Shown here: positions 1 through 11,010 of the stretch, in pieces
How positions within the stretch are numbered: the stretch's first letter is position 1
How the letters are laid out: each line of letters starts with the position of its first letter
Virus record (IMG/VR): IMGVR_UViG_2681813236_000014
Location: 1-11,010 of that record
Strand: one strand, 5' to 3'
From: a virus
Lineage: Duplodnaviria > Heunggongvirae > Uroviricota > Caudoviricetes
DNA: 11,010 nt
Program-made: the position numbers and the translations under genes
The notes under the pieces: model-generated
Database searches by the model: none
What the model saw: only the letters and a program-made list of their open reading frames with translations
What the model was told of the DNA's origin: nothing

Positions 1-37
1 GATAATAATTCTTAGTATTAATTCGGCAATCTGATTC

Positions 38-72
38 TACTCCCCCCCAGTACCTGATACTACCCCCCAGTA
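38..72. promoter_or_regulatory. Two RcnR operator sites in the rcnA-rcnR intergenic region (TACT-C7-AGTA at 38-52; TACT-A-C6-AGTA at 58-72)
   Basis: Seen directly: tactcccccccagta and tactaccccccagta. The reverse complement is the TACT-G6/7-AGTA motif known as the RcnR binding site; located immediately upstream of rcnR. Confidence 0.7.
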
Positions 73-120
73 GATTAATAGTGCTATGATTTTTCATATT
101 CTTGTTAACCAGGTGTTGCC

Positions 121-393
121 ATGTCTCATACAATCCGTGATAAACAGAAACTGAAAGCGCGTGCCAGTAAGATTCAGGGCCAGGTCGTGGCGCTCAAGAA
201 AATGCTCGACGAGCCGCACGAATGCGCTGCAGTTTTACAACAGATTGCTGCTATCCGTGGCGCGGTAAACGGTCTGATGCGGGAAGTGATTAAAGGTCAT
301 CTGACGGAACACATCGTTCACCAGGGGGATGAGCTAAAACGTGAAGAAGATCTGGATGTCGTTCTGAAGGTGCTGGATTCATATATCAAATAA
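121..393 (+). CDS. rcnR: RcnR, Ni/Co-responsive transcriptional repressor (RcnR/CsoR/FrmR family), 90 aa
   Basis: Translation [90 protein letters not shown] matches E. coli RcnR as I recall it; the operator motifs upstream are consistent. Confidence 0.92.
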
Positions 394-482
394 TTTATTA
401 ACGCGATTGTAAAACTGCCGTTTTTCCTCGTTTACAACGCGTGCGCTGGACATTACCATCCTCCTCTGCGATTTATCATCGC

Positions 483-534
483 AACCAAACGACTCGGGGT
501 GCCCTTCTGCGTGAAGGCTGAGAAATACCCGTAT
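483..534 (+). promoter_or_regulatory. 5' portion of the thiM TPP (THI-box) riboswitch, truncated by island insertion
   Basis: aaccaaacgactcggggtgcccttctgcgtgaaggctgagaaatacccgtat matches the start of the E. coli thiM leader/aptamer as recalled. The native continuation (CACCUGAUCUGGAUAAUGCCAGCG...) is absent; unrelated AT/GT-rich sequence follows from 535. Confidence 0.7.
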
Positions 535-535
535 T

Positions 536-722
536 TTCTCATTTAGTGTTTTTTGTGGTTCGGGGTTGCTTGTGGTTGTTTATGTATGTATTTGATAAAC
601 AATAAATTATCCTGTTTTCTTGTTTGTTGTTGTTCGTCGTTGTTCGTAGAGCTTCAACAAAATGTGTGGTCAGTTGTGTGGTCAGTTTTTTGAGGCTGGA
701 GGACTGAAAAGAGGATCTGATA
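536..722. repeat. att-proximal arm with short tandem direct repeats (TGTGTGGTCAGT x2 at 663-686; GTTGTTCGT x2 at ~628-646; TTGTGGTT x2 near 555-585)
   Basis: Seen directly. Lies between the insertion junction and the integrase start; this is the typical location of integrase arm-type or IHF sites and of the int promoter. Confidence 0.4.
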
Positions 723-1943
723 GTGGGAAAAGCACTAAACAAACTGAGCGATTCGACGTTAAAAAAATTGGCGGCTGTCCAGGCAGAAAAAGAGCGTTTT
801 TACTCCGACGGGGGCGGGCTGGAGATTAAACACTCAAAGGGCGGCAAATTAACCTGGTATTTCCGGTACCGAACGGGAGGCCGTGAGGTTGCCGCAGAGC
901 GGTTAAAGCTGGGGGCTTACCCTGAATTGTCGCTGAAAGCCGCAAGGGAAAAACGCACACTGTGCCGGGCATGGCTGGCTGAGGGTAAAAACCCCCGTTA
1001 TGAGTTGTGCGCCACAGTACAGGAAGCACTAAAACCCGTTACGGTGAAGGAAGCGATTAACTACTGGCTGGAGGAATACGCGAAGGATAACCGCAAAGAT
1101 TACATAAAGCTGGTGCAGCGTATGGATAAGCACATCATTTGCCATATTGGGGCAATTCCCCTTGATAAGTGTGATACAAGGCAGTGGATCGCATGTTTTG
1201 ACCGCGTACGAAAAAAAGCACCAGTAGCAGCGGGCCATGTCATGCAGACATGCAAACAGGCGCTAAAGTTTTGCCGCAGGCGGCGCTACGCGTTTAGCAA
1301 CGCCCTGGACGATTTGATCGTTACTGATGTGGGTAAGAGAGCAGAAATCCGCGAGAGAGTGCACAGCAACAGCGAACTAAAAGAAATTCTACGCGCTATT
1401 GATGGTGATGTGTTCGCTCCCTATTACAGTGCGTTAATGCGCTTGTTAATTGTGTTCGGGTGCAGAACGGCAGAGATCAGACTTTCAGAGATCAAAGAAT
1501 GGGACCTGAAAGAAATGTTGTGGACAGTGCCAAAAGAGCACAGCAAAACGAAGGTAACAATATTCCGACCTATTCCTGATGGTATTTTGCCGTTCATTCA
1601 GAAGCTGGTGGAGCAAAACGCACACACTGGGTTATTACTCGGCGAACTGAAAAAAGATACCACGGTGGCGCAATATGGACGAAATGCGCATAAGCGGCTT
1701 AAGCAGGAACACTGGACGCTGCATGATTTCCGACACACGTTTACAACTATGCTGAATGATTTAGGTGTCGATCCGCATATCGTGGAGCACATCACAGCGC
1801 ATCAGATGCCAGGTCAGCAAAAAACCTATAACCATTCACGCTATTTGCAGGCGAAACGGGACGCACTGAATCTATGGGTTGAGCGTCTTGATATGATTGC
1901 AGGATATAATGAAAATATTGTGATATTGAGAGGGATACAATGA
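723..1943 (+). CDS. int: Tyrosine recombinase, P4-type integrase (406 aa, GTG start)
   Basis: N-terminal arm-binding pattern (DGGGLEIKHSKGGKLTWYFRYR); catalytic-region motifs GCRTAEI, HDFRHT and a C-terminal Tyr (KTYNHS); RBS AAGAGGA 7 nt upstream; adjacent to the insertion junction. Confidence 0.9.
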   Translation: MGKALNKLSDSTLKKLAAVQAEKERFYSDGGGLEIKHSKGGKLTWYFRYRTGGREVAAERLKLGAYPELSLKAAREKRTLCRAWLAEGKNPRYELCATVQEALKPVTVKEAINYWLEEYAKDNRKDYIKLVQRMDKHIICHIGAIPLDKCDTRQWIACFDRVRKKAPVAAGHVMQTCKQALKFCRRRRYAFSNALDDLIVTDVGKRAEIRERVHSNSELKEILRAIDGDVFAPYYSALMRLLIVFGCRTAEIRLSEIKEWDLKEMLWTVPKEHSKTKVTIFRPIPDGILPFIQKLVEQNAHTGLLLGELKKDTTVAQYGRNAHKRLKQEHWTLHDFRHTFTTMLNDLGVDPHIVEHITAHQMPGQQKTYNHSRYLQAKRDALNLWVERLDMIAGYNENIVILRGIQ

Positions 1944-2794
1944 CGAAAAAAGTAAATAGTAAAAAAGATTTACCAAAGTCATTTGATTTAGGCAAATATG
2001 ATTGCCTAGAAAACTTGTCGGATAAAGATCTATTTCGCCAATTATATTGGCGACAAGATGATTTAACAATGAAACATTCTGAGATGCCTGAATATGGATT
2101 TATGTTTGGTGCTGAATACCCGTTGCATAATAATTACGGGGATCCATTTGGAGAGCTGAAAGAAGACGATTGGTTTTGTGATAAACAAAAAGAATATGAC
2201 CATAAAGTGCAACCGAAGTTAATTGAGCTAAGTTATGATGATGGAATTAAACCTGTAACAAGATTTGATATATCAATGATTAATAAACTGACTGCGGAAA
2301 GAGGATATTGGAAGGATAAACCAATCATCATAGATAATGAGATGGTTGGAAGTTTAATATCAGAAGATAATGGGATGTTTTGGGCTGTGATGCGTGAACC
2401 AGTGAATCTCCTTTCTGATACATTAGATAATATGCTTGTTTCTGTTGACTTACTACATAACAGAGATGATGAGTTGATTGAAGCGTTTACAAAACTATTA
2501 CCAAAATGGCGTAGTGAACTTTCAATTGTTGAGCCAGACAAACCAATTGCAGGAAGTTGGGAGAGCATACGACGTAAAATTATTGATTATAAGATAATCC
2601 CATTAATTGACTTATTATCTTGGGAGTTGTCTACAGATAGAAAAATTTCATTAGGGGTGCTTGCCGTATCTTTGTATCCTGATGGTGAAAAGGACACCTT
2701 TGCTATTGCTCAGACTGTAAAACCCTTCTTAGAAAAAATAATGCGCAGCGATTCTTTAGAAAAAATAAGAAAAATTTTATCTAATGAAAATTAA
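1940..2794 (+). CDS. Hypothetical protein, AT-rich cargo gene (284 aa), function unknown
   Basis: Long ORF with start overlapping the int stop (ATGA), RBS AGAGGGA. Markedly lower GC than flanking int and alpA. No motif I can assign. Confidence 0.7.
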   Translation: MTKKVNSKKDLPKSFDLGKYDCLENLSDKDLFRQLYWRQDDLTMKHSEMPEYGFMFGAEYPLHNNYGDPFGELKEDDWFCDKQKEYDHKVQPKLIELSYDDGIKPVTRFDISMINKLTAERGYWKDKPIIIDNEMVGSLISEDNGMFWAVMREPVNLLSDTLDNMLVSVDLLHNRDDELIEAFTKLLPKWRSELSIVEPDKPIAGSWESIRRKIIDYKIIPLIDLLSWELSTDRKISLGVLAVSLYPDGEKDTFAIAQTVKPFLEKIMRSDSLEKIRKILSNEN

Positions 2795-2897
2795 TCATGG
2801 AGAACGATAAATTAGAATAAAGTTTATTTTTCCAATATTGCACCAACTGCTATGGTAAATAAGATGCCCTTGTTCGGTTACGTTCGAGGGTGTTTTT

Positions 2898-3122
2898 ATG
2901 AATCAAAATACACAATTTCAATCACTAACAGATCGCGTAATTCGTGAGGATGAATGTCGTAAGTTAACAGGCGTCAGCCGTACTACACGCTACGAACTGG
3001 AGAAGAAAGGGGGCTTTCCGTCTCGCCGTAATCTTGGGGGGCGTTCTGTAGGCTGGTTGCTTTCCGAAGTTATGGACTGGGTGCAAAGCCGTGACCGCGT
3101 TAATTCAGGTAAGGCAGCGTAA
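2898..3122 (+). CDS. alpA: AlpA-family transcriptional regulator / excisionase-like (74 aa)
   Basis: HTH-containing small protein (LTGVSRTTRYELEKKGGFPSRRNLGGRSVGWLLSEVMDWVQS) typical of AlpA family; RBS GAGGG upstream; standard position after int in P4-like and PICI elements. Confidence 0.8.
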   Translation: MNQNTQFQSLTDRVIREDECRKLTGVSRTTRYELEKKGGFPSRRNLGGRSVGWLLSEVMDWVQSRDRVNSGKAA

Positions 3123-3140
3123 AGGGGAGCATATGACATA

Positions 3141-3168
3141 TAAAACAAAGGCGACCGGGGGCGGTCGC
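3141..3168 (-). terminator. Putative intrinsic terminator for the leftward regulator operon
   Basis: Perfect 8-bp GC-rich stem GGCGACCG/CGGTCGCC (3149-3156, 3161-3168) with 4-nt loop. On the minus strand it is followed by a U-rich run (complement of aaaacaaa, 3141-3148); no T-run on the plus strand. Confidence 0.5.
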
Positions 3169-3236
3169 CAATGGATACACACTAAACTTGAACGCATCGC
3201 CAACAATGCCACATTTGCGGCTGGTGGGCAATGTGA

Positions 3237-3416
3237 TCAGTCAGATTTGGTTCGTTCCAAGGTTTGCAACGAGAGCTTTTTCCTGTGCTCTTTAAGGAAT
3301 TTCTCAAGAGCAAACGAACAAGGTGCGAATCTTTCTGATTCATGTTCATGCGCTATATTTTTGCGTCGTCTCTTACGAGTTGGTGATGGTGTTTTGGTTG
3401 ATTCTGTGTCGCTCAT
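3237..3416 (-). CDS. Possible small basic protein (59 aa), below the ORF-track cutoff
   Basis: Manual translation of the minus strand gives MSDTESTKTPSPTRKRRRKNIAHEHESERFAPCSFALEKFLKEHRKKLSLQTLERTKSD with an AGGA RBS 6 nt upstream; sits between the RHH gene and the minus-strand terminator. Hand-derived, so coordinates could be off by a few nt. Confidence 0.3.
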   Translation of the reverse strand: MSDTESTKTPSPTRKRRRKNIAHEHESERFAPCSFALEKFLKEHRKKLSLQTLERTKSD

Positions 3417-3473
3417 GGTGCTGTCCTGTAAAGCAATGCGCCTGCGTTCCTCAAACTATGGCGCTGATAGTGG

Positions 3474-3779
3474 CTATTCCTGCTCTTTGACCTTGCGTCG
3501 CTGGAGTTCTTCACGCGCGACGGTGACGAGTTGCCCGATCTCCTCGGCGGCTTTGACTCCGATTTTTTCCACCTGCGCTAGGGCATCGAGCGAAGAAACC
3601 AGGAGGTTTTCTCCGCTTCCTTCTGCCTGGCGGCGGGCGATTTCACCGCGCATGGCGGTTACTATGAATCCGGCGTTGCTTTCACCGTCCAGTTTTACGG
3701 ATTCCATGCCTTCAATAACATCATGCGGGATCCGAGCTGTCAGTGATTGTGATTTTGCGTTTTTTGAACCTGTAGCCAT
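3474..3779 (-). CDS. Putative ribbon-helix-helix (CopG/Arc-like) DNA-binding regulator, 101 aa; candidate island repressor
   Basis: Strong RBS GAGAGGA 6 nt before the ATG at 3779 (the ORF-track start at 3794 is a TTG without RBS). N-terminus SLTARIPHDVIEGMESV fits a beta-strand/helix RHH pattern. Divergent from the pri operon across an operator-rich region. Confidence 0.6.
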   Translation of the reverse strand: MATGSKNAKSQSLTARIPHDVIEGMESVKLDGESNAGFIVTAMRGEIARRQAEGSGENLLVSSLDALAQVEKIGVKAAEEIGQLVTVAREELQRRKVKEQE

Positions 3780-3800
3780 CTGTAATCCTCTCAATGAAAG

Positions 3801-3877
3801 TGTAAGACAATATACACATAAAAAGTCTTACATAAAAGCATTGACATGTAAGCCACCTATAAATAAAGTTACTTACA
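3801..3877. promoter_or_regulatory. Divergent promoter/operator region: two TGTAAG-N19/20-CTTACA inverted-repeat operators plus rightward promoter (-35 TTGACA 3841-3846, -10 TAAAGT 3864-3869)
   Basis: Seen directly: TGTAAG at 3801-3806 and 3847-3852; CTTACA at 3827-3832 and 3872-3877. The second pair overlaps the promoter elements. Confidence 0.5.
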
Positions 3878-3975
3878 CCTTGTTAATGCAAGGTGCAGAA
3901 ACGACGAAACCCCGCACTGTAGGAGCAGTAACGGGGCTTCTAACCACCAACGATAGCAAGATTATCGAGGCAGCT

Positions 3976-4179
3976 ATGAGAAATCATACCATACACCCGC
4001 AAGGGCGGGACTCGTACAACCTGAATAAATACATCTGGCGTTTTATCGCCCTGAGCACCGCACAACCGCGCGTGATTCACATCGTGGCCACCAGCGAACA
4101 GGAAGCACGCCAGCAATCCCCGGCTGGCTGCGTGATGGTATTCGCCGCCCGTATTCGTCAGGGGGTGTGCCATGCCTGA
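3976..4179 (+). CDS. Small protein (67 aa), first gene of the rightward operon; possibly Icd-like cell-division-inhibitor family (weak recollection)
   Basis: First in-frame ATG after the promoter, RBS GAGG; MRNHTIHPQGRDSYNLNKYIWRFIALSTAQPRVIHIVATSEQEARQQSPAGCVMVFAARIRQGVCHA. The rest of the 362-aa ORF-track frame upstream is antisense to the RHH gene and not credible. Confidence 0.5.
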   Translation: MRNHTIHPQGRDSYNLNKYIWRFIALSTAQPRVIHIVATSEQEARQQSPAGCVMVFAARIRQGVCHA

Positions 4180-4492
4180 TATGTCAAATTACCAGTACCT
4201 GATTAATCCGCATTTTAACTGTGAGCATGATATTGCTAAAAAGATTTATTCCGCTGCGGATGGGGCTACTGACAATATATCAATGGCTGTTGCGTCAATT
4301 GGTAGCCTGATGTGGCATGCGTCAGAAAATGAGGACTATGACGAAAAGGCCATGCGCATTGATATGGGGAATATCGGTTTGTTACTGGCAATGCTTGGAC
4401 ATTTTGATATTTCGTTACGGTGCACCATTGAAAATGCCACAGATGCATTAAATGCTATAAAGAAAGCGAATACTGATTCAAATCGGGGATAA
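4172..4492 (+). CDS. Hypothetical protein (106 aa)
   Basis: Start overlaps the upstream stop (ATGCCTGA), RBS AGGGGG; in operon with the primase; no recognisable motif. Confidence 0.55.
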   Translation: MPDMSNYQYLINPHFNCEHDIAKKIYSAADGATDNISMAVASIGSLMWHASENEDYDEKAMRIDMGNIGLLLAMLGHFDISLRCTIENATDALNAIKKANTDSNRG

Positions 4493-4498
4493 ATAATC

Positions 4499-4798
4499 AT
4501 GAGAACGTATTTATCTGGCTTGACTGCCAGCGGTTATGCACACCCCCAAATTATCCCCGGCGCTATTTATCTGGATAAGAACGGTAACAGAGTAACGGTA
4601 AAAGAACTGATGTTTGACCGTGTGTATTTTATCCGTGATGGCTATTCATTTCTTAGTTCGCTGAACGTGGAGATCTTTATTAGCAGATTCAGGCGGGAAA
4701 TCCCGCTTTCCAGAAATAACCATGTGTCATGTATGGATGTTGATAAAAAACTACAGGAACTAAAAAACATGATTGCCGCGTGGAGAGAGCAGAAATGA
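4499..4798 (+). CDS. Hypothetical protein (99 aa)
   Basis: Stop overlaps the primase ATG at 4795 (ATGA), suggesting translational coupling; no recognisable motif. Confidence 0.55.
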   Translation: MRTYLSGLTASGYAHPQIIPGAIYLDKNGNRVTVKELMFDRVYFIRDGYSFLSSLNVEIFISRFRREIPLSRNNHVSCMDVDKKLQELKNMIAAWREQK

Positions 4799-6612
4799 AA
4801 AAAGCGCCAAATTTAAAACACCAGCCGCGTGACAAAATGACGGAAGTCATCATTTTTGCGGGTAGTGATGCGTGGGCACATGCGAAACAGTGGCAGGAAC
4901 AGGACGGGCGACTGGCTGGCGATAACGTGCCACCTGTCTGGCTTGGAGAGCAACAACTTGCCGAACTGGACAACCTGCAAATCGTACCGGACGGACGCTA
5001 TCGCGTGCGTCTCTATCAGGCGGGGTTATTGCGGCCGGGGCTTGTTAATACCATCGGGCAGAAACTGGCAGTGGCAGGTGTCAGGGATGCTGATTATTAC
5101 CCTGAAGGAATGCACAGCCAGAAACGGGAGAACTGGCGCGAATATCTGGAACGTGAACGGGCAGAGCAGGCGGAAAAGAAAAAGGTAGTTGAACTGCCTG
5201 TAAAGAAAAAAGAGCGGGTAAAAGACGATAACGCGTCATCACTGGCGCTTAACCAGATGGGAGCAAGTCAACGCGGCGAAGTTCTCCTGGCACATTATGG
5301 CGGTGAACTGGCGATTCATGCTGACTCTGACACTGTTCACCATTACAACGGCGTTGTATGGGAGCCAGTACAGGATAAAGAATTACAGCGAGCTATGGCA
5401 CAGATTTTCATTGATGCGGAGATCAGCTATTCGCAGAACGCCATTAAATCGGCGGTCGATACCATGAAGTTAAGTTTGCCTGTAATGGGGAATACAGCCC
5501 GTAACCTGATTGGATTCAGTAACGGGGTATTTGATACCAGAACAGGTAATTTTCGGGAGCATAACAAAAACGACTGGTTGTTAATTGCCAGTGAATTACC
5601 TTTCAGCCCACCAGCAGAGGGGGAAACGCTGGCAACACATGCGCCGAATTTCTGGAAGTGGTTACGCCGTTCGGTGGCTGAGAATGACCGCAAGGCGGAT
5701 CGCGTACTGGCTGCATTATTCATGGTGCTGGCGAACCGGTACGACTGGCAGTTATTCATTGAGGTAACAGGTCCAGGGGGAAGTGGTAAAAGCGTGATGG
5801 CGGAGATTTGCACCATGCTGGCGGGTAAGGCCAACACAGTATCGGCAAGCATGAAGGCGCTGGAAGATGCAAGGGAACGCGCGTTAGTGGTTGGCTTTTC
5901 GCTGATTATCATGCCGGATATGACCCGCTACGCTGGTGATGGGGCAGGGATTAAGGCTATTACAGGCGGTGACAAGGTGGCAATTGACCCGAAACACAAA
6001 GCCCCCTACTCAACGCGTATTCCGGCAGTAGTGCTGGCGGTTAACAATAACGCCATGTCATTCAGTGACCGCAGCGGGGGGATCTCACGTCGTCGGGTGA
6101 TATTCAATTTTTCGGAAGTTGTACCGGAGAACGAACGTGATCCAATGCTGGCGGAAAAAATAGAAGGTGAGCTGGCGGTAGTGATTCGCCATCTGCTTAC
6201 ACGGTTTGCTGACCAGGACGAAGCCAGACGCCTGTTATATGAGCAGCAGAAATCTGAAGAAGCACTGGCGATAAAGCGAGAGGGGGATTCGCTGGTGGAC
6301 TTCTGCGGCTATCTCATGGCGTCGGTAATGTGTGATGGCCTGTTAGTGGGTAATGCTGAAATTGTGCCATTCAGCCCACGCAGGTATCTCTATCATGCCT
6401 ATCTGGCTTATATGAGGGCACATGGGTTTGGTAAACCTGTAACACTGACGCGCTTCGGTAAAGATATGCCGGGGGCAATGGCGGAATATGGCAGGGAGTA
6501 TATGAAACGGAAAACGAAGCACGGTTTGCGTTCAAACGTGACACTGACGGAGGAATCAGAAGACTGGATGCCATCATGTGTATCGGTCACTAATGACGAT
6601 AGCAAAAATTAA
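4795..6612 (+). CDS. P4-family primase/helicase (replication initiator, pri-rep), ~605 aa
   Basis: Walker A GPGGSGKS (5769-5792) in the C-terminal helicase-like domain; large N-terminal domain; iteron origin immediately downstream. Start chosen at the ATG at 4795 (RBS GGAGAG, ATGA overlap) rather than the GTG at 4780. Confidence 0.88.
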   Translation: MKKAPNLKHQPRDKMTEVIIFAGSDAWAHAKQWQEQDGRLAGDNVPPVWLGEQQLAELDNLQIVPDGRYRVRLYQAGLLRPGLVNTIGQKLAVAGVRDADYYPEGMHSQKRENWREYLERERAEQAEKKKVVELPVKKKERVKDDNASSLALNQMGASQRGEVLLAHYGGELAIHADSDTVHHYNGVVWEPVQDKELQRAMAQIFIDAEISYSQNAIKSAVDTMKLSLPVMGNTARNLIGFSNGVFDTRTGNFREHNKNDWLLIASELPFSPPAEGETLATHAPNFWKWLRRSVAENDRKADRVLAALFMVLANRYDWQLFIEVTGPGGSGKSVMAEICTMLAGKANTVSASMKALEDARERALVVGFSLIIMPDMTRYAGDGAGIKAITGGDKVAIDPKHKAPYSTRIPAVVLAVNNNAMSFSDRSGGISRRRVIFNFSEVVPENERDPMLAEKIEGELAVVIRHLLTRFADQDEARRLLYEQQKSEEALAIKREGDSLVDFCGYLMASVMCDGLLVGNAEIVPFSPRRYLYHAYLAYMRAHGFGKPVTLTRFGKDMPGAMAEYGREYMKRKTKHGLRSNVTLTEESEDWMPSCVSVTNDDSKN

Positions 6613-6620
6613 ACTTATGG

Positions 6621-6850
6621 AATAACTGTTCACCACTGTTCACCCCGTCATAAATGTCTTTTATATCATTATATTATAGGGTGAACAGTTATTTATGAAC
6701 TGTTCACCAAACTATTCACTGTTCACCTTTTTGATTGTTTATTGAGCTGCAAGGGTGAACAGTGGTGAACAGTTGGTGAATAGTTTTTGTGAAACTGTTC
6801 ACCCCTTAACATTATGAATTGAAAGAGAAAATAGCAAAAGGTGAACACGT
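6621..6850. repeat. Iteron cluster / putative origin of replication
   Basis: About 10 copies of the 10-mer ACTGTTCACC in both orientations: direct at 6625, 6635, 6699, 6718, 6794; inverted GGTGAACAGT at 6680, 6754, 6764, plus degenerate copies at 6775 and 6840. An AT-rich stretch lies between them (6645-6679). Confidence 0.75.
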
Positions 6851-6955
6851 GAAGGGTTAAAATACAAAAATTTTATTACAGCATGGAATATTAAGTTTTA
6901 GCCGACAGGTAGTTAGCCATAAGAGGATATTTGTCGCTTAGTATTACGTACATAA

Positions 6956-6980
6956 CAGCAAACACTTTTCTGGTTTGCTG
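6956..6980 (-). terminator. Possible terminator hairpin downstream of the HEPN-like gene
   Basis: 8-bp stem CAGCAAAC/GTTTGCTG with 9-nt loop; flanking U-run on the minus strand is weak. Confidence 0.3.
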
Positions 6981-7003
6981 GATTAATAGATAAGCGCTAT
7001 AAG

Positions 7004-7717
7004 TTAGTTAGTTTTGAAAAATTTATTGAATAACTCTAAGCTTTCAGGATGTATATATTGAGTAGGGTAACTGATACGTTGTGAGCGTCCAATTTTTATT
7101 GTGTTTTTTTTCGTCTTCCCAAAAAATAGATTCTTCCATGTTAAAATGTTTCCGTGATTATATTTATTGTCTTTTAATCGCTTTTCCAAATAACCATCTG
7201 TGATTTTATATTTATGTGGCGGTACATTCCTTGAGTGCTCAATTTTCCGTAATTCTACTTCTAGCATATCTATTAGCTCACCTTTAGGGGTTTTGAGTTG
7301 ATAATTTAGTAAGCGGCAGTATCTGCGTAATTCCCATACAGTTCTATCTAATGTAATAATTTCAAACCCATTAGTATACATGACTTTTTGGAAGTATCTA
7401 TTTGGTCCTTGGTCATTTAGATACTCTATGAAATATATGCTTTTATCACTCAGATCTAGTTTAATATATGGAATATCATTAATTTTTTTAATTCCTGCAA
7501 CAAGATCATGTCCAATATTTTTAACAGGGATTCTATTAAAAATAAGAATGCATTTTATATATTTTTCAATTGCTTGTTGAGACATCCATAAAAATTGGAA
7601 AGGAAGATTGTTTTTAAAGCAAATACGAGCAGTTAGATAATCTTGATCAGCCATGTCTCTGAAAGATCTTTTAGCCGCATTATTCAGAAAAATTTTTTGA
7701 GTATCAGTAAGTTCCAT
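7004..7717 (-). CDS. AT-rich cargo protein with HEPN-like N-terminal domain (237 aa); candidate RNase-type defense/abortive-infection effector
   Basis: RBS AGGAAG; N-terminal helices with HEPN-like pattern (AAKRSFRDMADQDYLTARI...QQAIEKYIKCIL...NIGHDLVAGIKKI); roughly 30% GC by eye versus ~50% in flanks; opposite strand to surrounding island genes. Confidence 0.7.
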   Translation of the reverse strand: MELTDTQKIFLNNAAKRSFRDMADQDYLTARICFKNNLPFQFLWMSQQAIEKYIKCILIFNRIPVKNIGHDLVAGIKKINDIPYIKLDLSDKSIYFIEYLNDQGPNRYFQKVMYTNGFEIITLDRTVWELRRYCRLLNYQLKTPKGELIDMLEVELRKIEHSRNVPPHKYKITDGYLEKRLKDNKYNHGNILTWKNLFFGKTKKNTIKIGRSQRISYPTQYIHPESLELFNKFFKTN

Positions 7718-7863
7718 TCTCTTCCTGTGTCAGTGGTTGCAAGTGATTAGAAGATACAAGACATGATAAAGATTATAAATCGATTTTTATGGTAAAAATA
7801 TGTTTATTTACCACTTTTGTAGATCGATACTATGTATAGTTTAGTCAGTCAGAGGAAGTTGTT

Positions 7864-8073
7864 GTGAGTTGTATTAATGACCTGAACACAGGCGATATCA
7901 GAGGCGGTTCCGTTCATCTGGATGCGCAGACCGTTATGCGCCTTAAGCAGTACAGGATCGACCATATAAATCATCATCCTGACCAACCATTACCAGGTGT
8001 GGCGCAGATTGTCAGGCATGCCGTAAACGCCTGGCTTAATCAGAGTGGTTTTGCATCGGAGAGTGAGCAATGA
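7864..8073 (+). CDS. Hypothetical small protein (69 aa, GTG start) preceding the capsid gene
   Basis: RBS AGAGGAAG 5 nt before the GTG; stop overlaps the next ATG (ATGA); function not assignable. Confidence 0.5.
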   Translation: MSCINDLNTGDIRGGSVHLDAQTVMRLKQYRIDHINHHPDQPLPGVAQIVRHAVNAWLNQSGFASESEQ

Positions 8074-9983
8074 ATCACTGGTACACCATTAAGGCGGCGG
8101 ATGTTCGCGGAGCGGCGGATATATCTATCTATGAGGAGATTGGCGGCTTCGGTGTTACTGCAAAGCAGTTCGCGGAAGACCTGAAAGCCCTTGGCGATGT
8201 TTCACATATCAATCTGAGGATCCATTCACCAGGTGGTGATGTGTTTGAAGGCATCGCCATCTATAACCTGCTACGGAATCATCCGGCAGACATTACGGTT
8301 TATATCGATGGTGTTGCGGCTTCAATGGCTTCGGTTGTCGCAATGGCTGGCGATCGTGTTGTTATGCCGGAGAACGCCATGATGATGATCCATAAGCCGT
8401 GGGGTATCTCTGGCGGAAATGCTGGCGATATGCGTGATTATGCTGATTTGCTGGATAAGGTGGAAACCGTGTTAATCCCTGCTTATGCCAGAAAAACGGG
8501 CAAATCAGCACAGGAAATTACCGCCATGCTGGAGGATGAAACCTGGATGGATGGGAAAGAATGCCTTAAGCACGGTTTTGCTGATGAATTGTTGCCATCC
8601 GTCAGAGCAATGGCGCGAATTGAATCGAAACGCACAGGAGATTTTTTACATATGCCGGAAACCATTAAAGGAATGATTACACCGCCACAGGGAGCGGCAA
8701 ATATTGCTGGTAATGAACAGAAGCGCATCAATGGAATAAGTGAAGTGTTTAGCTTGTTCGGCAGTCGTTACGACGGGATCAAAATGGCGTGTCTGGAAGA
8801 TGCATCATGTACACCGGAAATGGCCCGTGAAAAGCTGTTGAACGAGCTGGGGCGCGAGTCCACGCCATCCAATAAAAATACCTCGCCTCATATCTATGCC
8901 GGAAACGGAAACATAACAGGTGATGCAATTCGTCAGGGGCTTTATTCCCGTCTTGGGTATGAACGCCCTGAACGAGGCAACCCTTACGCGATGATGAGCC
9001 TTTTTGAAATGGCCCAGGCATCACTGGTTGATCGTGGTATCACTGTGAGCGGTTTTATTAATCGCTCGCAGGTTGTTAATGCGGCTTTTACACACAGCAG
9101 CAGCGATTTTTCTCATATTCTGGCTGGTGGCGCTGAGAAATCAGTACTGAAAGGCTGGCAGGACAGCGGCGAAACGTTCCAGAAATGGACGCGTACCGGT
9201 TCGCTTTCAAACTTTCATGAAGCAAAGCGCGTTGGTCTGAATGGTTTTTCAAAGCTGGATAAAGTACCGGAAGGCGCGGAATATAAATACATCACCACTA
9301 GCGATAAAGGTGTACCTATTGCGCTGGCCACGTACGGGAATATTTTTTCCGTTACCCGTCAGGCCATTATCAACGATGACCTGACCCAGTTAACTACAAT
9401 CCCCATGGCGATGGGACGCGCAGCTGCCAGAACAGTTGGCAATCTGGTTTATCTCCTGTTAACCAGCAACGGCAAGTTTACGGATGGTAAAGCGTTATTC
9501 CATGCCGATCATAAAAATCTTATTGCGAAGGATATGGACATGGAGGGGCTTAACGAAGCCCGTAAGCTGATGCGCCTCCAGGAAGACGCTAACGGCGATT
9601 CGCTGAATATTACCCCCGCATTTGTCCTGGTCCCCGCCGCGCTGGAGTCTGCCGCACATCGCGCCATTCTGTCATCGTCATCACTCTTTCCGGTTGATGG
9701 CGTGGGCACTATCAATCAGAACCCCGGCATCATTAACGTGGTGAAAGATATGGCGGAGGTAATCGTTGAGCCACGTCTTGATAAAGCCAATAACAAGGAG
9801 TGGTATGTGGCAGCGGCGAAGGGTATGGACACGATAGAGGTCGCTTATCTTGATGGTATTGATACGCCATATCTTGAGGAGCAGGAGGGCTTTACTGTTG
9901 ATGGCGTCGCCTGGAAGGTGCGCATAGATGCAGGTGTCGCGGCCCTCGACTATCGCGGATTACTGAAATCGAGTGGAGCATGA
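8070..9983 (+). CDS. Prohead protease (ClpP/S14-like) fused to major capsid protein (637 aa)
   Basis: N-terminus has ClpP-like motifs (IHSPGGDV, GVAASMASVVAMAGD, MMIHKPWG). C-terminal ~400 aa resemble phage major head proteins (DGKALFHADHKN recalls Mu gpT-like DGKPFFAADHP). Strong RBS; intrinsic terminator immediately downstream. Confidence 0.85.
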   Translation: MNHWYTIKAADVRGAADISIYEEIGGFGVTAKQFAEDLKALGDVSHINLRIHSPGGDVFEGIAIYNLLRNHPADITVYIDGVAASMASVVAMAGDRVVMPENAMMMIHKPWGISGGNAGDMRDYADLLDKVETVLIPAYARKTGKSAQEITAMLEDETWMDGKECLKHGFADELLPSVRAMARIESKRTGDFLHMPETIKGMITPPQGAANIAGNEQKRINGISEVFSLFGSRYDGIKMACLEDASCTPEMAREKLLNELGRESTPSNKNTSPHIYAGNGNITGDAIRQGLYSRLGYERPERGNPYAMMSLFEMAQASLVDRGITVSGFINRSQVVNAAFTHSSSDFSHILAGGAEKSVLKGWQDSGETFQKWTRTGSLSNFHEAKRVGLNGFSKLDKVPEGAEYKYITTSDKGVPIALATYGNIFSVTRQAIINDDLTQLTTIPMAMGRAAARTVGNLVYLLLTSNGKFTDGKALFHADHKNLIAKDMDMEGLNEARKLMRLQEDANGDSLNITPAFVLVPAALESAAHRAILSSSSLFPVDGVGTINQNPGIINVVKDMAEVIVEPRLDKANNKEWYVAAAKGMDTIEVAYLDGIDTPYLEEQEGFTVDGVAWKVRIDAGVAALDYRGLLKSSGA

Positions 9984-9989
9984 CAACAA

Positions 9990-10013
9990 GGGCGGCGATA
10001 GCCGCCTTTTTTT
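9990..10013 (+). terminator. Rho-independent terminator after the capsid gene
   Basis: Stem GGCGGC/GCCGCC (9991-9996, 10001-10006), loop GATA, followed by T7 (10007-10013). Confidence 0.7.
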
Positions 10014-10061
10014 ACGGGTCCTCCCGGTGGGGTGGTCTGCCACGGGGCGGGAGCGGCGCGG
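10014..10061. other. Lambda-like cos site (cosQ/cosN-homologous segment); candidate 12-nt cohesive end GGGCGGGAGCGG at 10045-10056
   Basis: ACGGGTCCTCCCGGTG...ACGGGGCGGGAGCGGCGCGG aligns with the recalled lambda junction ACGGGTCCTTTCCGGTGATCCGACAGGTTACG|GGGCGGCGACCT|CGCGGG; the terS start lies ~196 bp downstream, as Nu1 does in lambda. Confidence 0.6.
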
Positions 10062-10240
10062 AAAAAGGCTAGTTTTTGCATTTTCATTCGTCATCATCAT
10101 CTTCATATTGTATTGAATTTTAAGCATTTTTATTTTTGGTATGTTAATTTTACTTGTTTTATGCTCAACATATAGCGCATTTTTTGACCTCTTCTGAAAG
10201 TTGTTCGCAAGATGCATGTTTAAAACATTCTGGAGCGGGT

Positions 10241-10726
10241 ATGGATCGAGAACTGAAAAATCTGATGCTGAACATTAATCAACTGGCGGCGATAGCGGGA
10301 ATATGTCGTCAGACTGCGGCGGCAAGGCTGAAAAACATCCAGCCAGCCGGAGGGCATGACAAGCTGAAACTCTATCGGGTGACTGACATTCTGACCTGTT
10401 TTCTTGATCTTCCCGTTCCGGCATCACTGGAAGAAATGGAGCCACATGACCGTAAGGCCTGGTATCAGTCCGAACGTGAACGCCTCAAGTTCGAACAGGA
10501 AACGGCGCAACTCATACCCGCCGATGATGTGCGAAAAGAGATGGCTATATGGGGGGAAATCGTAAGCGAGGAACTGGCAAAACTCCCCAATATTCTGGCA
10601 CGTGATGCCGGGCTTAAACCGATGGCAGTAAACAGAGTGCAGTCAATTATTGACGATTTGTGTAATCAGATTATCAGCCGGATGGTAAAAAATGACGTAG
10701 TGAATGAGGTCGCAAAACAGGCATGA
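10241..10726 (+). CDS. Small terminase subunit, Nu1-like (161 aa)
   Basis: RBS GGAG 7 nt before the ATG at 10241 (the ORF-track start at 10154 lies inside the cos region and lacks an RBS). N-terminal HTH (LNINQLAAIAGICRQTAAARLKN) and overall layout resemble lambda Nu1; immediately downstream of cos. Confidence 0.72.
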   Translation: MDRELKNLMLNINQLAAIAGICRQTAAARLKNIQPAGGHDKLKLYRVTDILTCFLDLPVPASLEEMEPHDRKAWYQSERERLKFEQETAQLIPADDVRKEMAIWGEIVSEELAKLPNILARDAGLKPMAVNRVQSIIDDLCNQIISRMVKNDVVNEVAKQA

Positions 10727-11010
10727 TAATGACCGAATCTGAAATACTGCGATTAATCCGCTGTGCTGGTGGAATCAGCCAGTTGGCTGACGAACAGGCC
10801 GCGCAGCCGGATACAGTCACCGCTGAAAATTACGCGCGTGTGGTGGCTGAGGTGATGCGCCGTGACGGTATTGAGCTTAACGGCGTGGATATGCGCAACA
10901 TACGAACCAGAGTTCTTGAGTTGCTGGCATACCGTCGCCGTTCTCAACAACGGAGGGAGAGCGCGAAAAATACTTACCAGTGGAGGAAGCCGGAGCACTT
11001 ACGGCGGTAA
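10723..11010 (+). CDS. Hypothetical protein (95 aa) downstream of terS
   Basis: Start overlaps the terS stop (ATGA); stop at the window end; no recognisable motif. Confidence 0.45.
   Translation: MIMTESEILRLIRCAGGISQLADEQAAQPDTVTAENYARVVAEVMRRDGIELNGVDMRNIRTRVLELLAYRRRSQQRRESAKNTYQWRKPEHLRR

Follow-up and report, generated by a model that had tools for sequence, protein, structure and literature searches.

Gene organization of the island

The stretch of DNA analyzed here, positions 1 to 11,010 of the IMG/VR virus record IMGVR_UViG_2681813236_000014 (the whole of its 11,010 nucleotides is hereafter referred to as the window), contains a short segment of the Escherichia coli chromosome and, from position 535 onward, a phage satellite. 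In the region of 535–11010, the genes form one co-oriented set, with two on the opposite strand: they include an integrase gene (int), the regulator gene alpA, a replication gene (rep) followed by an iteron origin (ori), a gene for a capsid protein, a cos site, and a gene for a small terminase homologue (terS). The element is very probably a classical Gram-negative phage-inducible chromosomal island (PICI) of 11,079 bp resembling EcCICFT073, of which only the final 603 bp lie beyond the window. It lies within the aptamer of the thiM thiamine pyrophosphate (TPP) riboswitch, between rcnR and thiM, where a P4-type tyrosine integrase very probably inserted it. The coordinates of the features are collected in Table 1.

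Two lines of evidence identify the kind of element. One is the gene set. A classical Proteobacterial PICI is composed of int, a regulator gene (alpA), pri-rep, a capsid-morphogenesis or capsid-homologue gene, and terS (PMC10085698), and all five components are present here. PICIs with all five occur almost exclusively in E. coli and have already been counted by SatelliteFinder (PMC10085698). The other is the collinearity with EcCICFT073 of E. coli CFT073, the prototypical classical Gram-negative PICI (Fillol-Salom et al. 2018, PMC6092414; 2019, PMC6739421). The shared order is int, alpA, a divergent YlcI/YnfO gene, an Icd-like gene, small open reading frames (ORFs), a DUF4222 gene, rep, ori, an accessory slot, a small ORF, a capsid gene, a packaging-specificity gene, and a last gene for a 93-amino-acid (93-aa) protein. 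The original prediction for this DNA, which was made from the sequence, had described a phage satellite of the PICI kind and not a prophage, and this part of it is borne out by the gene set and the collinearity. The int, alpA, iteron origin, cos, and terS that it listed were all found at the places it gave. It had also reported the lack of lysis, tail, and repressor genes; indeed, no ORF of the window matched the tail, lysis, holin, portal, large-terminase, connector, or CI-type repressor families in the Pfam, PHROG, and NCBIfam scans, and the HNH family is absent from the island.

Table 1. Positions of the features found in the window and the matches or observations on which they are based
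Feature	Position	Strand	Basis
attL core AGAAATACCCGTAT	521..534		Comparison with the K-12 empty site
70-bp block of short tandem repeats: 2.8 copies of TTGTTCGTCG and 2 copies of TGTGTGGTCAGT	620..689		Repeat search and Tandem Repeats Finder (TRF)
int, tyrosine integrase with P4-type arm-binding domain	723..1943	+	Arm-DNA-bind_3 1.9e-17; Phage_integrase 8e-17; phrog_1 3.7e-66
DUF6387 accessory gene	1940..2794	+	PF19924 3.3e-31; G+C 34%
alpA, AlpA-family excisionase/transcriptional activator	2898..3122	+	PF05930 4.8e-16
YlcI/YnfO family protein, divergent from the replication operon	3474..3794	-	NF041551 5.6e-20; phrog_6522 1.5e-57
Icd-like small protein, first gene of the replication operon	3976..4179	+	NF033153 5.3e-20
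Hypothetical 106-aa protein	4172..4492	+	phrog_15327 5.4e-71; no Pfam, NCBIfam, or PADLOC match
DUF4222 protein	4499..4798	+	PF13973 1.4e-16
rep, replication protein with D5_N, DUF5906/SF3 helicase, Pox_D5, and P4-alpha-type origin-binding domain	4795..6612	+	Pfam; phrog_864 3e-192
Replication origin: nine copies of ACTGTTCACC in both orientations, with A+T-rich spacers	6625..6803		Directly after the rep stop codon
HEPN-domain protein in the variable cargo slot, 30% G+C	7004..7717	-	PF05168 1.6e-4, 22.2 bits against a cut-off of 22
69-aa ORF	7864..8073	+	phrog_4934 4.8e-32
ClpP-like prohead protease, scaffold-like linker, and HK97-fold major capsid protein in one polypeptide	8070..9983	+	NF045540
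Intrinsic terminator after the capsid gene: hairpin GGCGGC-GATA-GCCGCC, then T7	9991..10013	+	Read from the sequence
cos site	10014..10240	+	Alignments to lambdoid phages upstream of terS
terS, DUF1441-type small terminase homologue	10241..10726	+	PF07278 1.3e-35; phrog_141 6.7e-57
orf93, 93-aa protein, last gene of the island	10729..11010	+	phrog_1561 3e-51; its stop codon ends at the last base of the window

Boundaries of the island

Positions 1–534 of the window are E. coli chromosome and contain rcnR (121–393) and the 5′ half of the thiM TPP riboswitch. The ORF at 121–393 was at first guessed to be frmR; this was rejected, as the RefSeq annotation gives rcnR, which is host DNA outside the island. 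When the window was compared with the empty site of K-12, which reads ...ggctgAGAAATACCCGTATcacctg..., the first island-specific base was found to be exactly 535, the start point that the original prediction had given. The attR is a second copy of the 14-bp AGAAATACCCGTAT and occupies the window-equivalent positions of 11600–11613. In seven contigs with 99.9–99.99% identity to the window, the distance between the two copies of this repeat is 11,079 bp, and no gene is annotated in the 603 bases between the end of the window and that of the island. In the complete E. coli genomes that match the whole window at 99.3%, thiM starts about 680–685 bp past the window end. Eight contigs encode exactly the same capsid protein, and all of them show the order of rcnR, the island, about 685 bp without genes, and thiM-thiD-yegX; the contig of GCA_949281815.1 differs from the window by 1 base in 11,010.

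Two other candidates for the integration target were rejected. One is a tRNA gene: none is present, and the target is the thiM TPP riboswitch. The other is a pair of 70-bp terminal repeats as the true att core: the block listed in Table 1 has a second copy, 94% identical, near the right end (window-equivalent about 11464–11533; locus L001, 26464–26533), but the comparison with the K-12 empty site puts the junctions at the 14-bp repeat further out. These 70-bp blocks are probably the arm sites of the integrase and AlpA, because both would flank the attP core in the excised circle, by analogy with the arm repeats annotated in the P4 attP.

The position of the right junction bears on the class of the element. 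The original prediction had assigned it to the capsid-forming PICIs (cf-PICIs), expecting the remaining packaging genes past the end of the window and a total of about 15 kb. An element of this class encodes the capsid, protease, portal, connectors, and terminase for whole heads and depends on a helper for tails only, and the genes missing here would then have to lie downstream. The presence of int, alpA, rep, a capsid/protease gene, and terS, together with the lack of tail and lysis genes, agrees with this, and so does the capsid gene, which is under purifying selection and belongs to a satellite-specific lineage apart from the phage copies, as reported for cf-PICI capsids. However, the portal, head-tail adaptor/connector, HNH, and large terminase (terL) genes, which separate cf-PICIs from classical PICIs (PMC10085698; bioRxiv 10.1101/2022.09.08.507074), are all absent; genes of the portal, connector, and terL types are treated as ‘forbidden’ components in the PICI model of SatelliteFinder (PMC10085698; bioRxiv 10.1101/2022.09.08.507074). 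From the end of the window to attR and thiM, there are only 603 non-coding bases, and the island of 11.08 kb is to be compared with the 15.4 kb of EcCIEDL933, the cf-PICI prototype. Furthermore, its order of capsid-cos-terS-orf93 differs from that of capsid-protease-portal-connectors-hnh-terS-terL in the Proteobacterial cf-PICIs. The extension to the right junction, which the original prediction had proposed as a check, was carried out with public genomes, and no terL, portal, or connector genes were found before thiM; thus, neither the downstream packaging module nor the total of 15 kb has held. Because the island ends about 600 bases past the window without portal, large terminase, and connector genes, a cf-PICI is very improbable. 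The tail and lysis modules of a full-length prophage were likewise looked for downstream in the public genomes and were not seen. As neither these modules nor the cf-PICI genes lie downstream, the element is a phage satellite of the PICI kind, and neither a prophage nor a cf-PICI. It does not belong in counts of the cf-PICIs, and no packaging genes are to be expected downstream.

The boundaries also help to judge whether the locus is a decayed lambdoid prophage that has kept a few head genes. The capsid fusion gene, terS, and cos are homologous to those of the lambdoid head module, as such a remnant would predict. Nevertheless, a remnant is not expected to have precise 14-bp att repeats with matched arm repeats at both ends, or to recur as the same 11,079-bp unit in several different assemblies. 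The int-alpA-rep-ori backbone is also that of a PICI known from experiments to be mobile, and the ORF scans gave no remnants of phage early, lysis, or tail genes. In addition, purifying selection acts on the late genes, which share only about 60% identity with the phage copies, and they are arranged as capsid-cos-terS, as opposed to the terS-terL-W-portal-capsid of the phages. A prophage remnant is, consequently, a highly improbable explanation.

The capsid fusion gene

The late operon seems to begin just upstream of the capsid gene. The stop codon of the 69-aa ORF overlaps the capsid start codon by 4 bases, and a 210-bp gene is annotated at the equivalent place in the satellite of strain EC42405 (locus L012). 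RefSeq annotates instead a 42-aa ORF on the minus strand (7849–7977), which has no family match. The plus-strand ORF is probably the real gene and the first of the late operon.

The original prediction had spoken of one capsid gene. A single gene is indeed present, but it is not a plain capsid gene: protease, scaffold, and capsid are fused in its product. The match to the NCBIfam family NF045540 (ClpP-like prohead protease/major capsid fusion) reached 904 bits against a cut-off of 475, and the Pfam matches were Phage_capsid_4 (1.4e-53) and CLP_protease (1.8e-35). The protein is 58% identical to gp05 of phage mEp460. It departs most from the phage protein in the linker that joins the protease and capsid parts, where 29 residues are deleted, and the ClpP Ser and His motifs, AASMAS and MIHKP, are retained. 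The terminator that follows the gene has a counterpart annotated at the equivalent place in mEp460.

We then considered the substitutions among the copies of the gene. Among four satellite copies, the ratio of nonsynonymous to synonymous substitution rates (dN/dS) was 0.08–0.15, with dS of up to 0.31. Between satellite and phage copies, identity is about 60% and dS is saturated; among themselves, the phage copies share 99% identity. Because dN/dS is low and the satellite and phage copies have diverged to about 60% identity with saturated dS, the gene is, as judged from these comparisons, an old and satellite-specific lineage under purifying selection, and neither a recent capture nor a decaying remnant. 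The retained motifs and the substitution pattern indicate that the single-gene shell module of the island is functional and conserved. This bears on what the capsid homologues in Gram-negative PICIs are for, as the gene found here is under purifying selection and by itself encodes everything that is needed for a shell.

On this basis, a satellite that is partly capsid-forming can be considered as an alternative to the classical PICI. Tentatively, the single, self-processing polypeptide would assemble the whole icosahedral shell, probably a small one suited to the 11-kb genome, on the portal of the helper, and the island would be intermediate between classical PICIs and cf-PICIs. In this alternative, which is possible but less likely than not, the portal, large terminase, connectors, and tail would still come from the helper; the island's own TerS would direct the helper large terminase (TerL) to the island's cos, and this TerS and the cosB variant would give packaging priority. 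Several features speak for this alternative. One is that the protease, the scaffold-like linker, and the capsid, namely everything for a shell, come from one gene, with the protease Ser and His motifs kept and dN/dS about 0.1. Another is that the protein is 58–60% identical to the helper capsids, and the 29-residue linker deletion could change the assembly geometry. The last is that the genome is one quarter the size of that of the helper and that a precedent exists in Ccm of SaPIbov5, a capsid homologue that makes small capsids. On the other side, the argument is drawn, for the island, from its sequence; the fit of a capsid protein that has diverged by 40% from that of the helper onto the helper portal is only presumed; and the knock-outs in EcCICFT073 and the state of the gene in some otherwise intact-looking relatives, both described below, do not favor it. 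If this alternative is true, it would cover about 3% of complete E. coli genomes (the carriers of the late module) and would suggest a stepwise origin of the cf-PICIs by late-gene capture.

The cos site and the packaging genes

The region of 10014–10240 is non-coding and aligns with the DNA upstream of terS in the lambdoid phages PhiR40_1 and vB_EcoS-606R10, with the homology beginning abruptly at ACGGGTCC. The first approximately 75 bp are about 97% identical to the phage, as compared with 66% in the neighboring coding DNA. A putative cosN, GGGCGGGAGCGG, was found at 10045–10056. The GenBank record of phage cdtI begins with GGGCGGGAGCGT, the first 12 bases of which match the cosN of the island, and this parallels the GGGCGGCGACCT of lambda. 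When four satellites and four phages were aligned, the cosN block and its flanks (10014–10090) were found to be conserved, while the stretch from there to terS, which corresponds to the position of cosB in lambda, varies. The twelfth base of cosN (10056) is G in the island and in two satellite relatives, and T in the four phages or prophages compared and in the EC42405 satellite.

The TerS of the island is 65–71% identical to those of the mEp460/PhiR40_1-type phages. Identity among the TerS proteins of the four satellites is at least 96%; it is 61–68% to the mEp460/PhiR40_1 type and 31% to the cdtI type. Their N-terminal part is closely similar to that of PhiR40_1, and the C-terminal approximately 50 residues are satellite-specific (residues of about 107–161, encoded by 10560–10726). 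The altered C-terminus may change the choice of partner. Nothing significant was found when the island TerS was searched against the PDB. As for orf93, its product is 72% identical to that of the last gene of EcCICFT073, and a search against the PDB gave no relative. The possibility that orf93 is a fragment of terL was rejected, as no similarity to TerL exists.

Likely helper and relatives

The head module of mEp460 is arranged as terS (DUF1441)-terL-W-portal-protease/capsid fusion-decoration. From the similarities described above, the head type of the helper is predicted to be that of the mEp460/cdtI/PhiR40_1-type lambdoid phages. The genomes of this class are 42–47 kb; therefore, the island amounts to one quarter of a helper genome (4 × 11,079 = 44,316 bp; mEp460, 44,510 bp).

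The late module (7864–11010) was found at a coverage of at least 80% in 187 of the 5,426 complete E. coli genomes. The capsid-cos-terS-orf93 part also occurs in satellites inserted in terL, with 99.4% identity in strain B1-56 (L011, 2707–15637) and 90% identity in strain EC42405 (L012, 2807–15609). The prophages that host these two satellites carry a DUF1441 terS, a portal gene, and a ClpP-capsid fusion gene, and this setting is a further pointer to the type of helper. In both cases, the terL (gpA) of a lambdoid prophage is split in two by the satellite, and the prophage thus cannot make TerL until the satellite excises. The occurrence of one late module both in chromosomal islands and in terL-embedded satellites of likely helpers links the two lifestyles. 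Capsid genes are the late genes that Gram-negative PICIs capture most often (bioRxiv 10.1101/2022.07.18.500453).

Three relatives at the thiM site have different late regions. In that of the ST131 strain 751, a partial gene for a ‘phage tail protein’ and a gene for a ‘tail assembly protein’ separate the capsid gene from cos (L008, 12132–12832), which looks like a further late-gene capture in the family. In the relative of 19KM1776 (L009), a frameshift interrupts the capsid gene, and a second terS and a fragment of the protease are present, after which comes another integrase gene. In Es_ST80_L1_NDM_10_2017 (L010), the capsid domain is deleted and a remnant of the protease is left.

The replication module

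The Rep protein is 51% identical to residues 320–771 of the P4 alpha protein, which comprise the helicase and the origin-binding domain, and 48% identical to the Rep of EcCICFT073. Its C-terminus matches the structure of the P4 alpha origin-binding domain (PDB 1ka8, 1.8e-24). The zinc-finger/Toprim primase domain of alpha is absent; residues 1–140 (4795–5220) match no Pfam family, with phrog_2850 as the only match. The designation ‘P4-family primase’ in the original prediction is therefore only partly accurate: the helicase and origin-binding parts are homologous to those of alpha, and the N-terminal primase domain is missing. In the window, ACTGTTCACC occurs 10 times, as compared with 0.44 expected, and none of 200 shuffled sequences reached 10. 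The iteron core TGTTCACC is the same as the annotated ‘ori type 1 repeat’ of P4.

These similarities raise the question of whether the element is a P4-like satellite that exploits a P2-type helper. In addition to the related Rep and the iterons with the same octamer, the AlpA is 45% identical to ORF88 of P4, and the size of 11.08 kb is close to the 11.6 kb of P4. However, no homologue of Sid, Psu, Delta, or epsilon was found in any ORF, the Int is only 22% identical to that of P4, and no C4/isrK immunity RNA was detected at E ≤ 0.1. The cos site and the terS and capsid genes resemble those of lambdoid phages of the mEp460 type. A 19-nt sequence taken as the P2/P4 cos end had no match within 3 mismatches. 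A satellite of the P4 kind is thus exceedingly improbable, and a classical PICI with a replication module related to that of P4 remains the reading that we prefer.

The first gene of the replication operon encodes an Icd-like protein with 92% identity to its EcCICFT073 counterpart. Upstream of this gene (3841–3869) is the best sigma-70-like match of the island, a single consensus match; the numbers of matches in the consensus scan for promoters and terminators were not above the shuffled expectation. The DUF4222 protein is 33% identical to its homologue in the equivalent position in EcCICFT073. Two assignments based on P4 were rejected for lack of similarity: the Icd-like protein as a relative of the P4 ‘cI’ ORF, and the 106-aa protein as a relative of P4 ORF106.

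Insertion site, regulatory genes, and accessory genes

As a result of the integration, the riboswitch is divided into two parts. The 5′ half (492–534 of the window, …ggggtgc…ctgagaaatacccgtat) stays beside rcnR, and the 3′ half is with thiM, 11 kb away (L001, 26523–26657). The TPP aptamer detected at attR by Rfam is truncated, with 33 bits against a gathering score of 54. In the Rfam scan of the island and its flanks (E ≤ 0.1), this truncated aptamer and a chance match to a long non-coding RNA were the only hits, and no P4-type immunity RNA (C4/isrK) was found. Because the aptamer is split and the island supplies no replacement for the lost half or for the thiM promoter, the regulation of thiMD (thiamine salvage) is probably altered in the carriers. 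A literature search for thiM or rcnR as a satellite attachment site found nothing relevant.

The Int is 66% identical to the integrase of EcCICFT073, and the AlpA is 66% identical to the helix-turn-helix (HTH) protein of EcCICFT073. The YlcI/YnfO protein is 61% identical to its EcCICFT073 counterpart. A 362-aa open frame on the plus strand (3091–4179) runs across the YlcI/YnfO gene of the minus strand, and its last part is the Icd-like gene; in some assemblies, this frame is annotated as a 348-aa protein, without a family match. The family matches favor the two small genes (YlcI/YnfO and Icd-like) over the 362-aa frame.

The DUF6387 gene sits between int and alpA, and its start codon shares bases with the int stop codon (ATGA); neither EcCICFT073 nor the terL-embedded relatives carry this gene. 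The cargo slot between ori and the late operon is variable. In place of the HEPN gene, only a 42-aa hypothetical ORF is found in the ST131 relative, SSB and a small ORF in the terL-embedded relatives, and SSB and PerC in EcCICFT073. The HEPN protein had no PADLOC, PHROG, or NCBIfam match, and its gene could be an undescribed accessory, defence, or abortive-infection gene. PADLOC gave no credible match for the HEPN, DUF6387, and small ORFs; a match of orf93 to BrxA (0.0065) was dismissed.

Proposed life cycle and evaluation of the reading

The following life cycle is proposed, the first three steps from homology with EcCICFT073 and P4 and the last two from the sequence. In the first step, a lambdoid helper phage would turn on alpA. 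In the second, AlpA and Int would excise the island at the 14-bp core, with the doubled repeats on either side serving as arm sites. In the third, the P4-alpha-like helicase/origin-binding protein would fire the TGTTCACC iteron origin just 3′ of its gene, and concatemers would be produced. In the fourth, the cos of the island, in which cosN and its flanks are nearly identical to those of the mEp460/cdtI/PhiR40_1 type and the cosB-like stretch is the island's own, would be recognized by the island TerS. This TerS would recruit the helper TerL directly or act as a partner of the helper TerS in the manner of Rpp, and the helper terminase would then cut and package the island DNA. In the fifth, the helper would supply the portal, TerL, connectors, tail, and lysis functions. 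The capsid fusion protein may contribute to or re-size the capsids, or interfere with the head assembly of the helper. Because the 11.08-kb genome is one quarter of a helper genome of 42–47 kb, heads of helper size might take up a tetramer, or small heads a monomer.

Several points weigh against this reading of the element as a classical PICI using its own late genes. The window stops before the right junction, which was read from a contig 99.99% identical to it, and we infer induction, excision, replication, transfer, and helper use from homology and sequence. Regarding the capsid gene, not all relatives have kept it intact: in some, it is lost, degraded, or disrupted by a frameshift. Interference by EcCICFT073 persisted when its capsid or decoration gene was deleted, and this PICI is packaged in phage-sized heads (PMC6092414). 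Given these results, the capsid gene of the island may not act in the control of capsid size. Regarding TerS, the satellite proteins lack the acidic tail (DDEEELQQEE or DEEGESL) of both phage TerS types compared. The C-terminal part of the lambda TerS contacts TerL. Because the C-terminus of the satellite TerS is divergent and without the acidic tail, the direct binding of the island TerS to the helper TerL is uncertain. Lastly, in the small set of elements compared, the cosB type does not change cleanly together with the TerS type.

Comparison with known systems

Besides the gene order, the island shares with EcCICFT073 the size of about 11 kb, the packaging by cos with a lambdoid helper, which is predicted for the island, and the carriage of a capsid homologue. 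The clearest difference is in the late module. EcCICFT073 has a lambda E-like capsid protein, a D-like decoration protein, and RppA, while the island has the ClpP protease-capsid fusion and a full-length DUF1441 TerS. The late-module pairs of the two elements show no similarity at the BLAST level; the RppA of EcCICFT073 was identified by its match to the RppC structure 6hlk, and the island TerS occupies the position of RppA. The two elements also differ in attB (the roxA/phoQ region in EcCICFT073, the thiM riboswitch here), in cargo (SSB and PerC, as opposed to DUF6387 and HEPN), and in helper. EcCICFT073 is mobilized by lambda and phi80, whereas the predicted helper of the island is of the mEp460/cdtI/PhiR40_1 type.

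With EcCIEDL933 (bioRxiv 10.1101/2022.09.08.507074, PMC10085698), the island has in common the int-alpA-rep backbone, terS, and the lack of tail and lysis genes. Like the cf-PICIs, it encodes a capsid and a protease of a lineage apart from the phage copies, fused here into one gene. It differs in lacking the portal, head-tail adaptor, connector, HNH, and terL genes, in its size (11.1 kb against 15.4 kb), and in having a lambda-type cos beside a DUF1441 terS instead of an HNH-terS-terL module. Because the portal, adaptor/connector, HNH, and terL genes are lacking, the island cannot build a packaging-competent head alone.

The satellites of B1-56 and EC42405 have the arrangement of the helper-embedded satellites (HES) described by Tommasini, Mageeney and Williams (bioRxiv 10.1101/2022.07.18.500453), and the island shares with them the capsid-cos-terS-orf93 module and the four-zone layout of integration, Bro/regulatory, replication, and late zones. 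The island has another integrase and occupies a chromosomal site, the thiM leader, instead of a late gene of a prophage, and those satellites have a BRO-N gene where the island has DUF6387. The likeness to P4 lies in the helicase/origin-binding region of Rep, the TGTTCACC iteron core, the AlpA/Vis-type regulator (45%), the arm-binding domain of the integrase, and the size of about 11 kb. The differences from P4 are that the island has no sid, psu, delta, or epsilon, no primase domain of alpha, and no detected CI RNA, and that its cos and predicted helper are lambdoid rather than of the P2 type. Finally, SaPIbov5 is a cos-packaged satellite with a homologue of the HK97-fold major capsid protein of its helper, and the same is predicted for the island. 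The Ccm of SaPIbov5 makes small capsids, whereas the capsid protein of the island is fused to a protease and a scaffold, and for it size redirection is only a hypothesis.

Taken together, the EcCICFT073-type backbone and the pattern of late-gene capture of the HES preprint (bioRxiv 10.1101/2022.07.18.500453) are already known. Particular to the island are the attachment site in the thiM riboswitch, the exchange in the late module of TerS for Rpp and of the fusion for E/D, and the selection-maintained single-gene shell module. The island is therefore a clean example of modular exchange in PICIs: the EcCICFT073 backbone is kept, and the late module is swapped for that of another lambdoid head/terminase type, with the DUF1441 TerS and the ClpP-capsid fusion replacing Rpp and the lambda E/D proteins.

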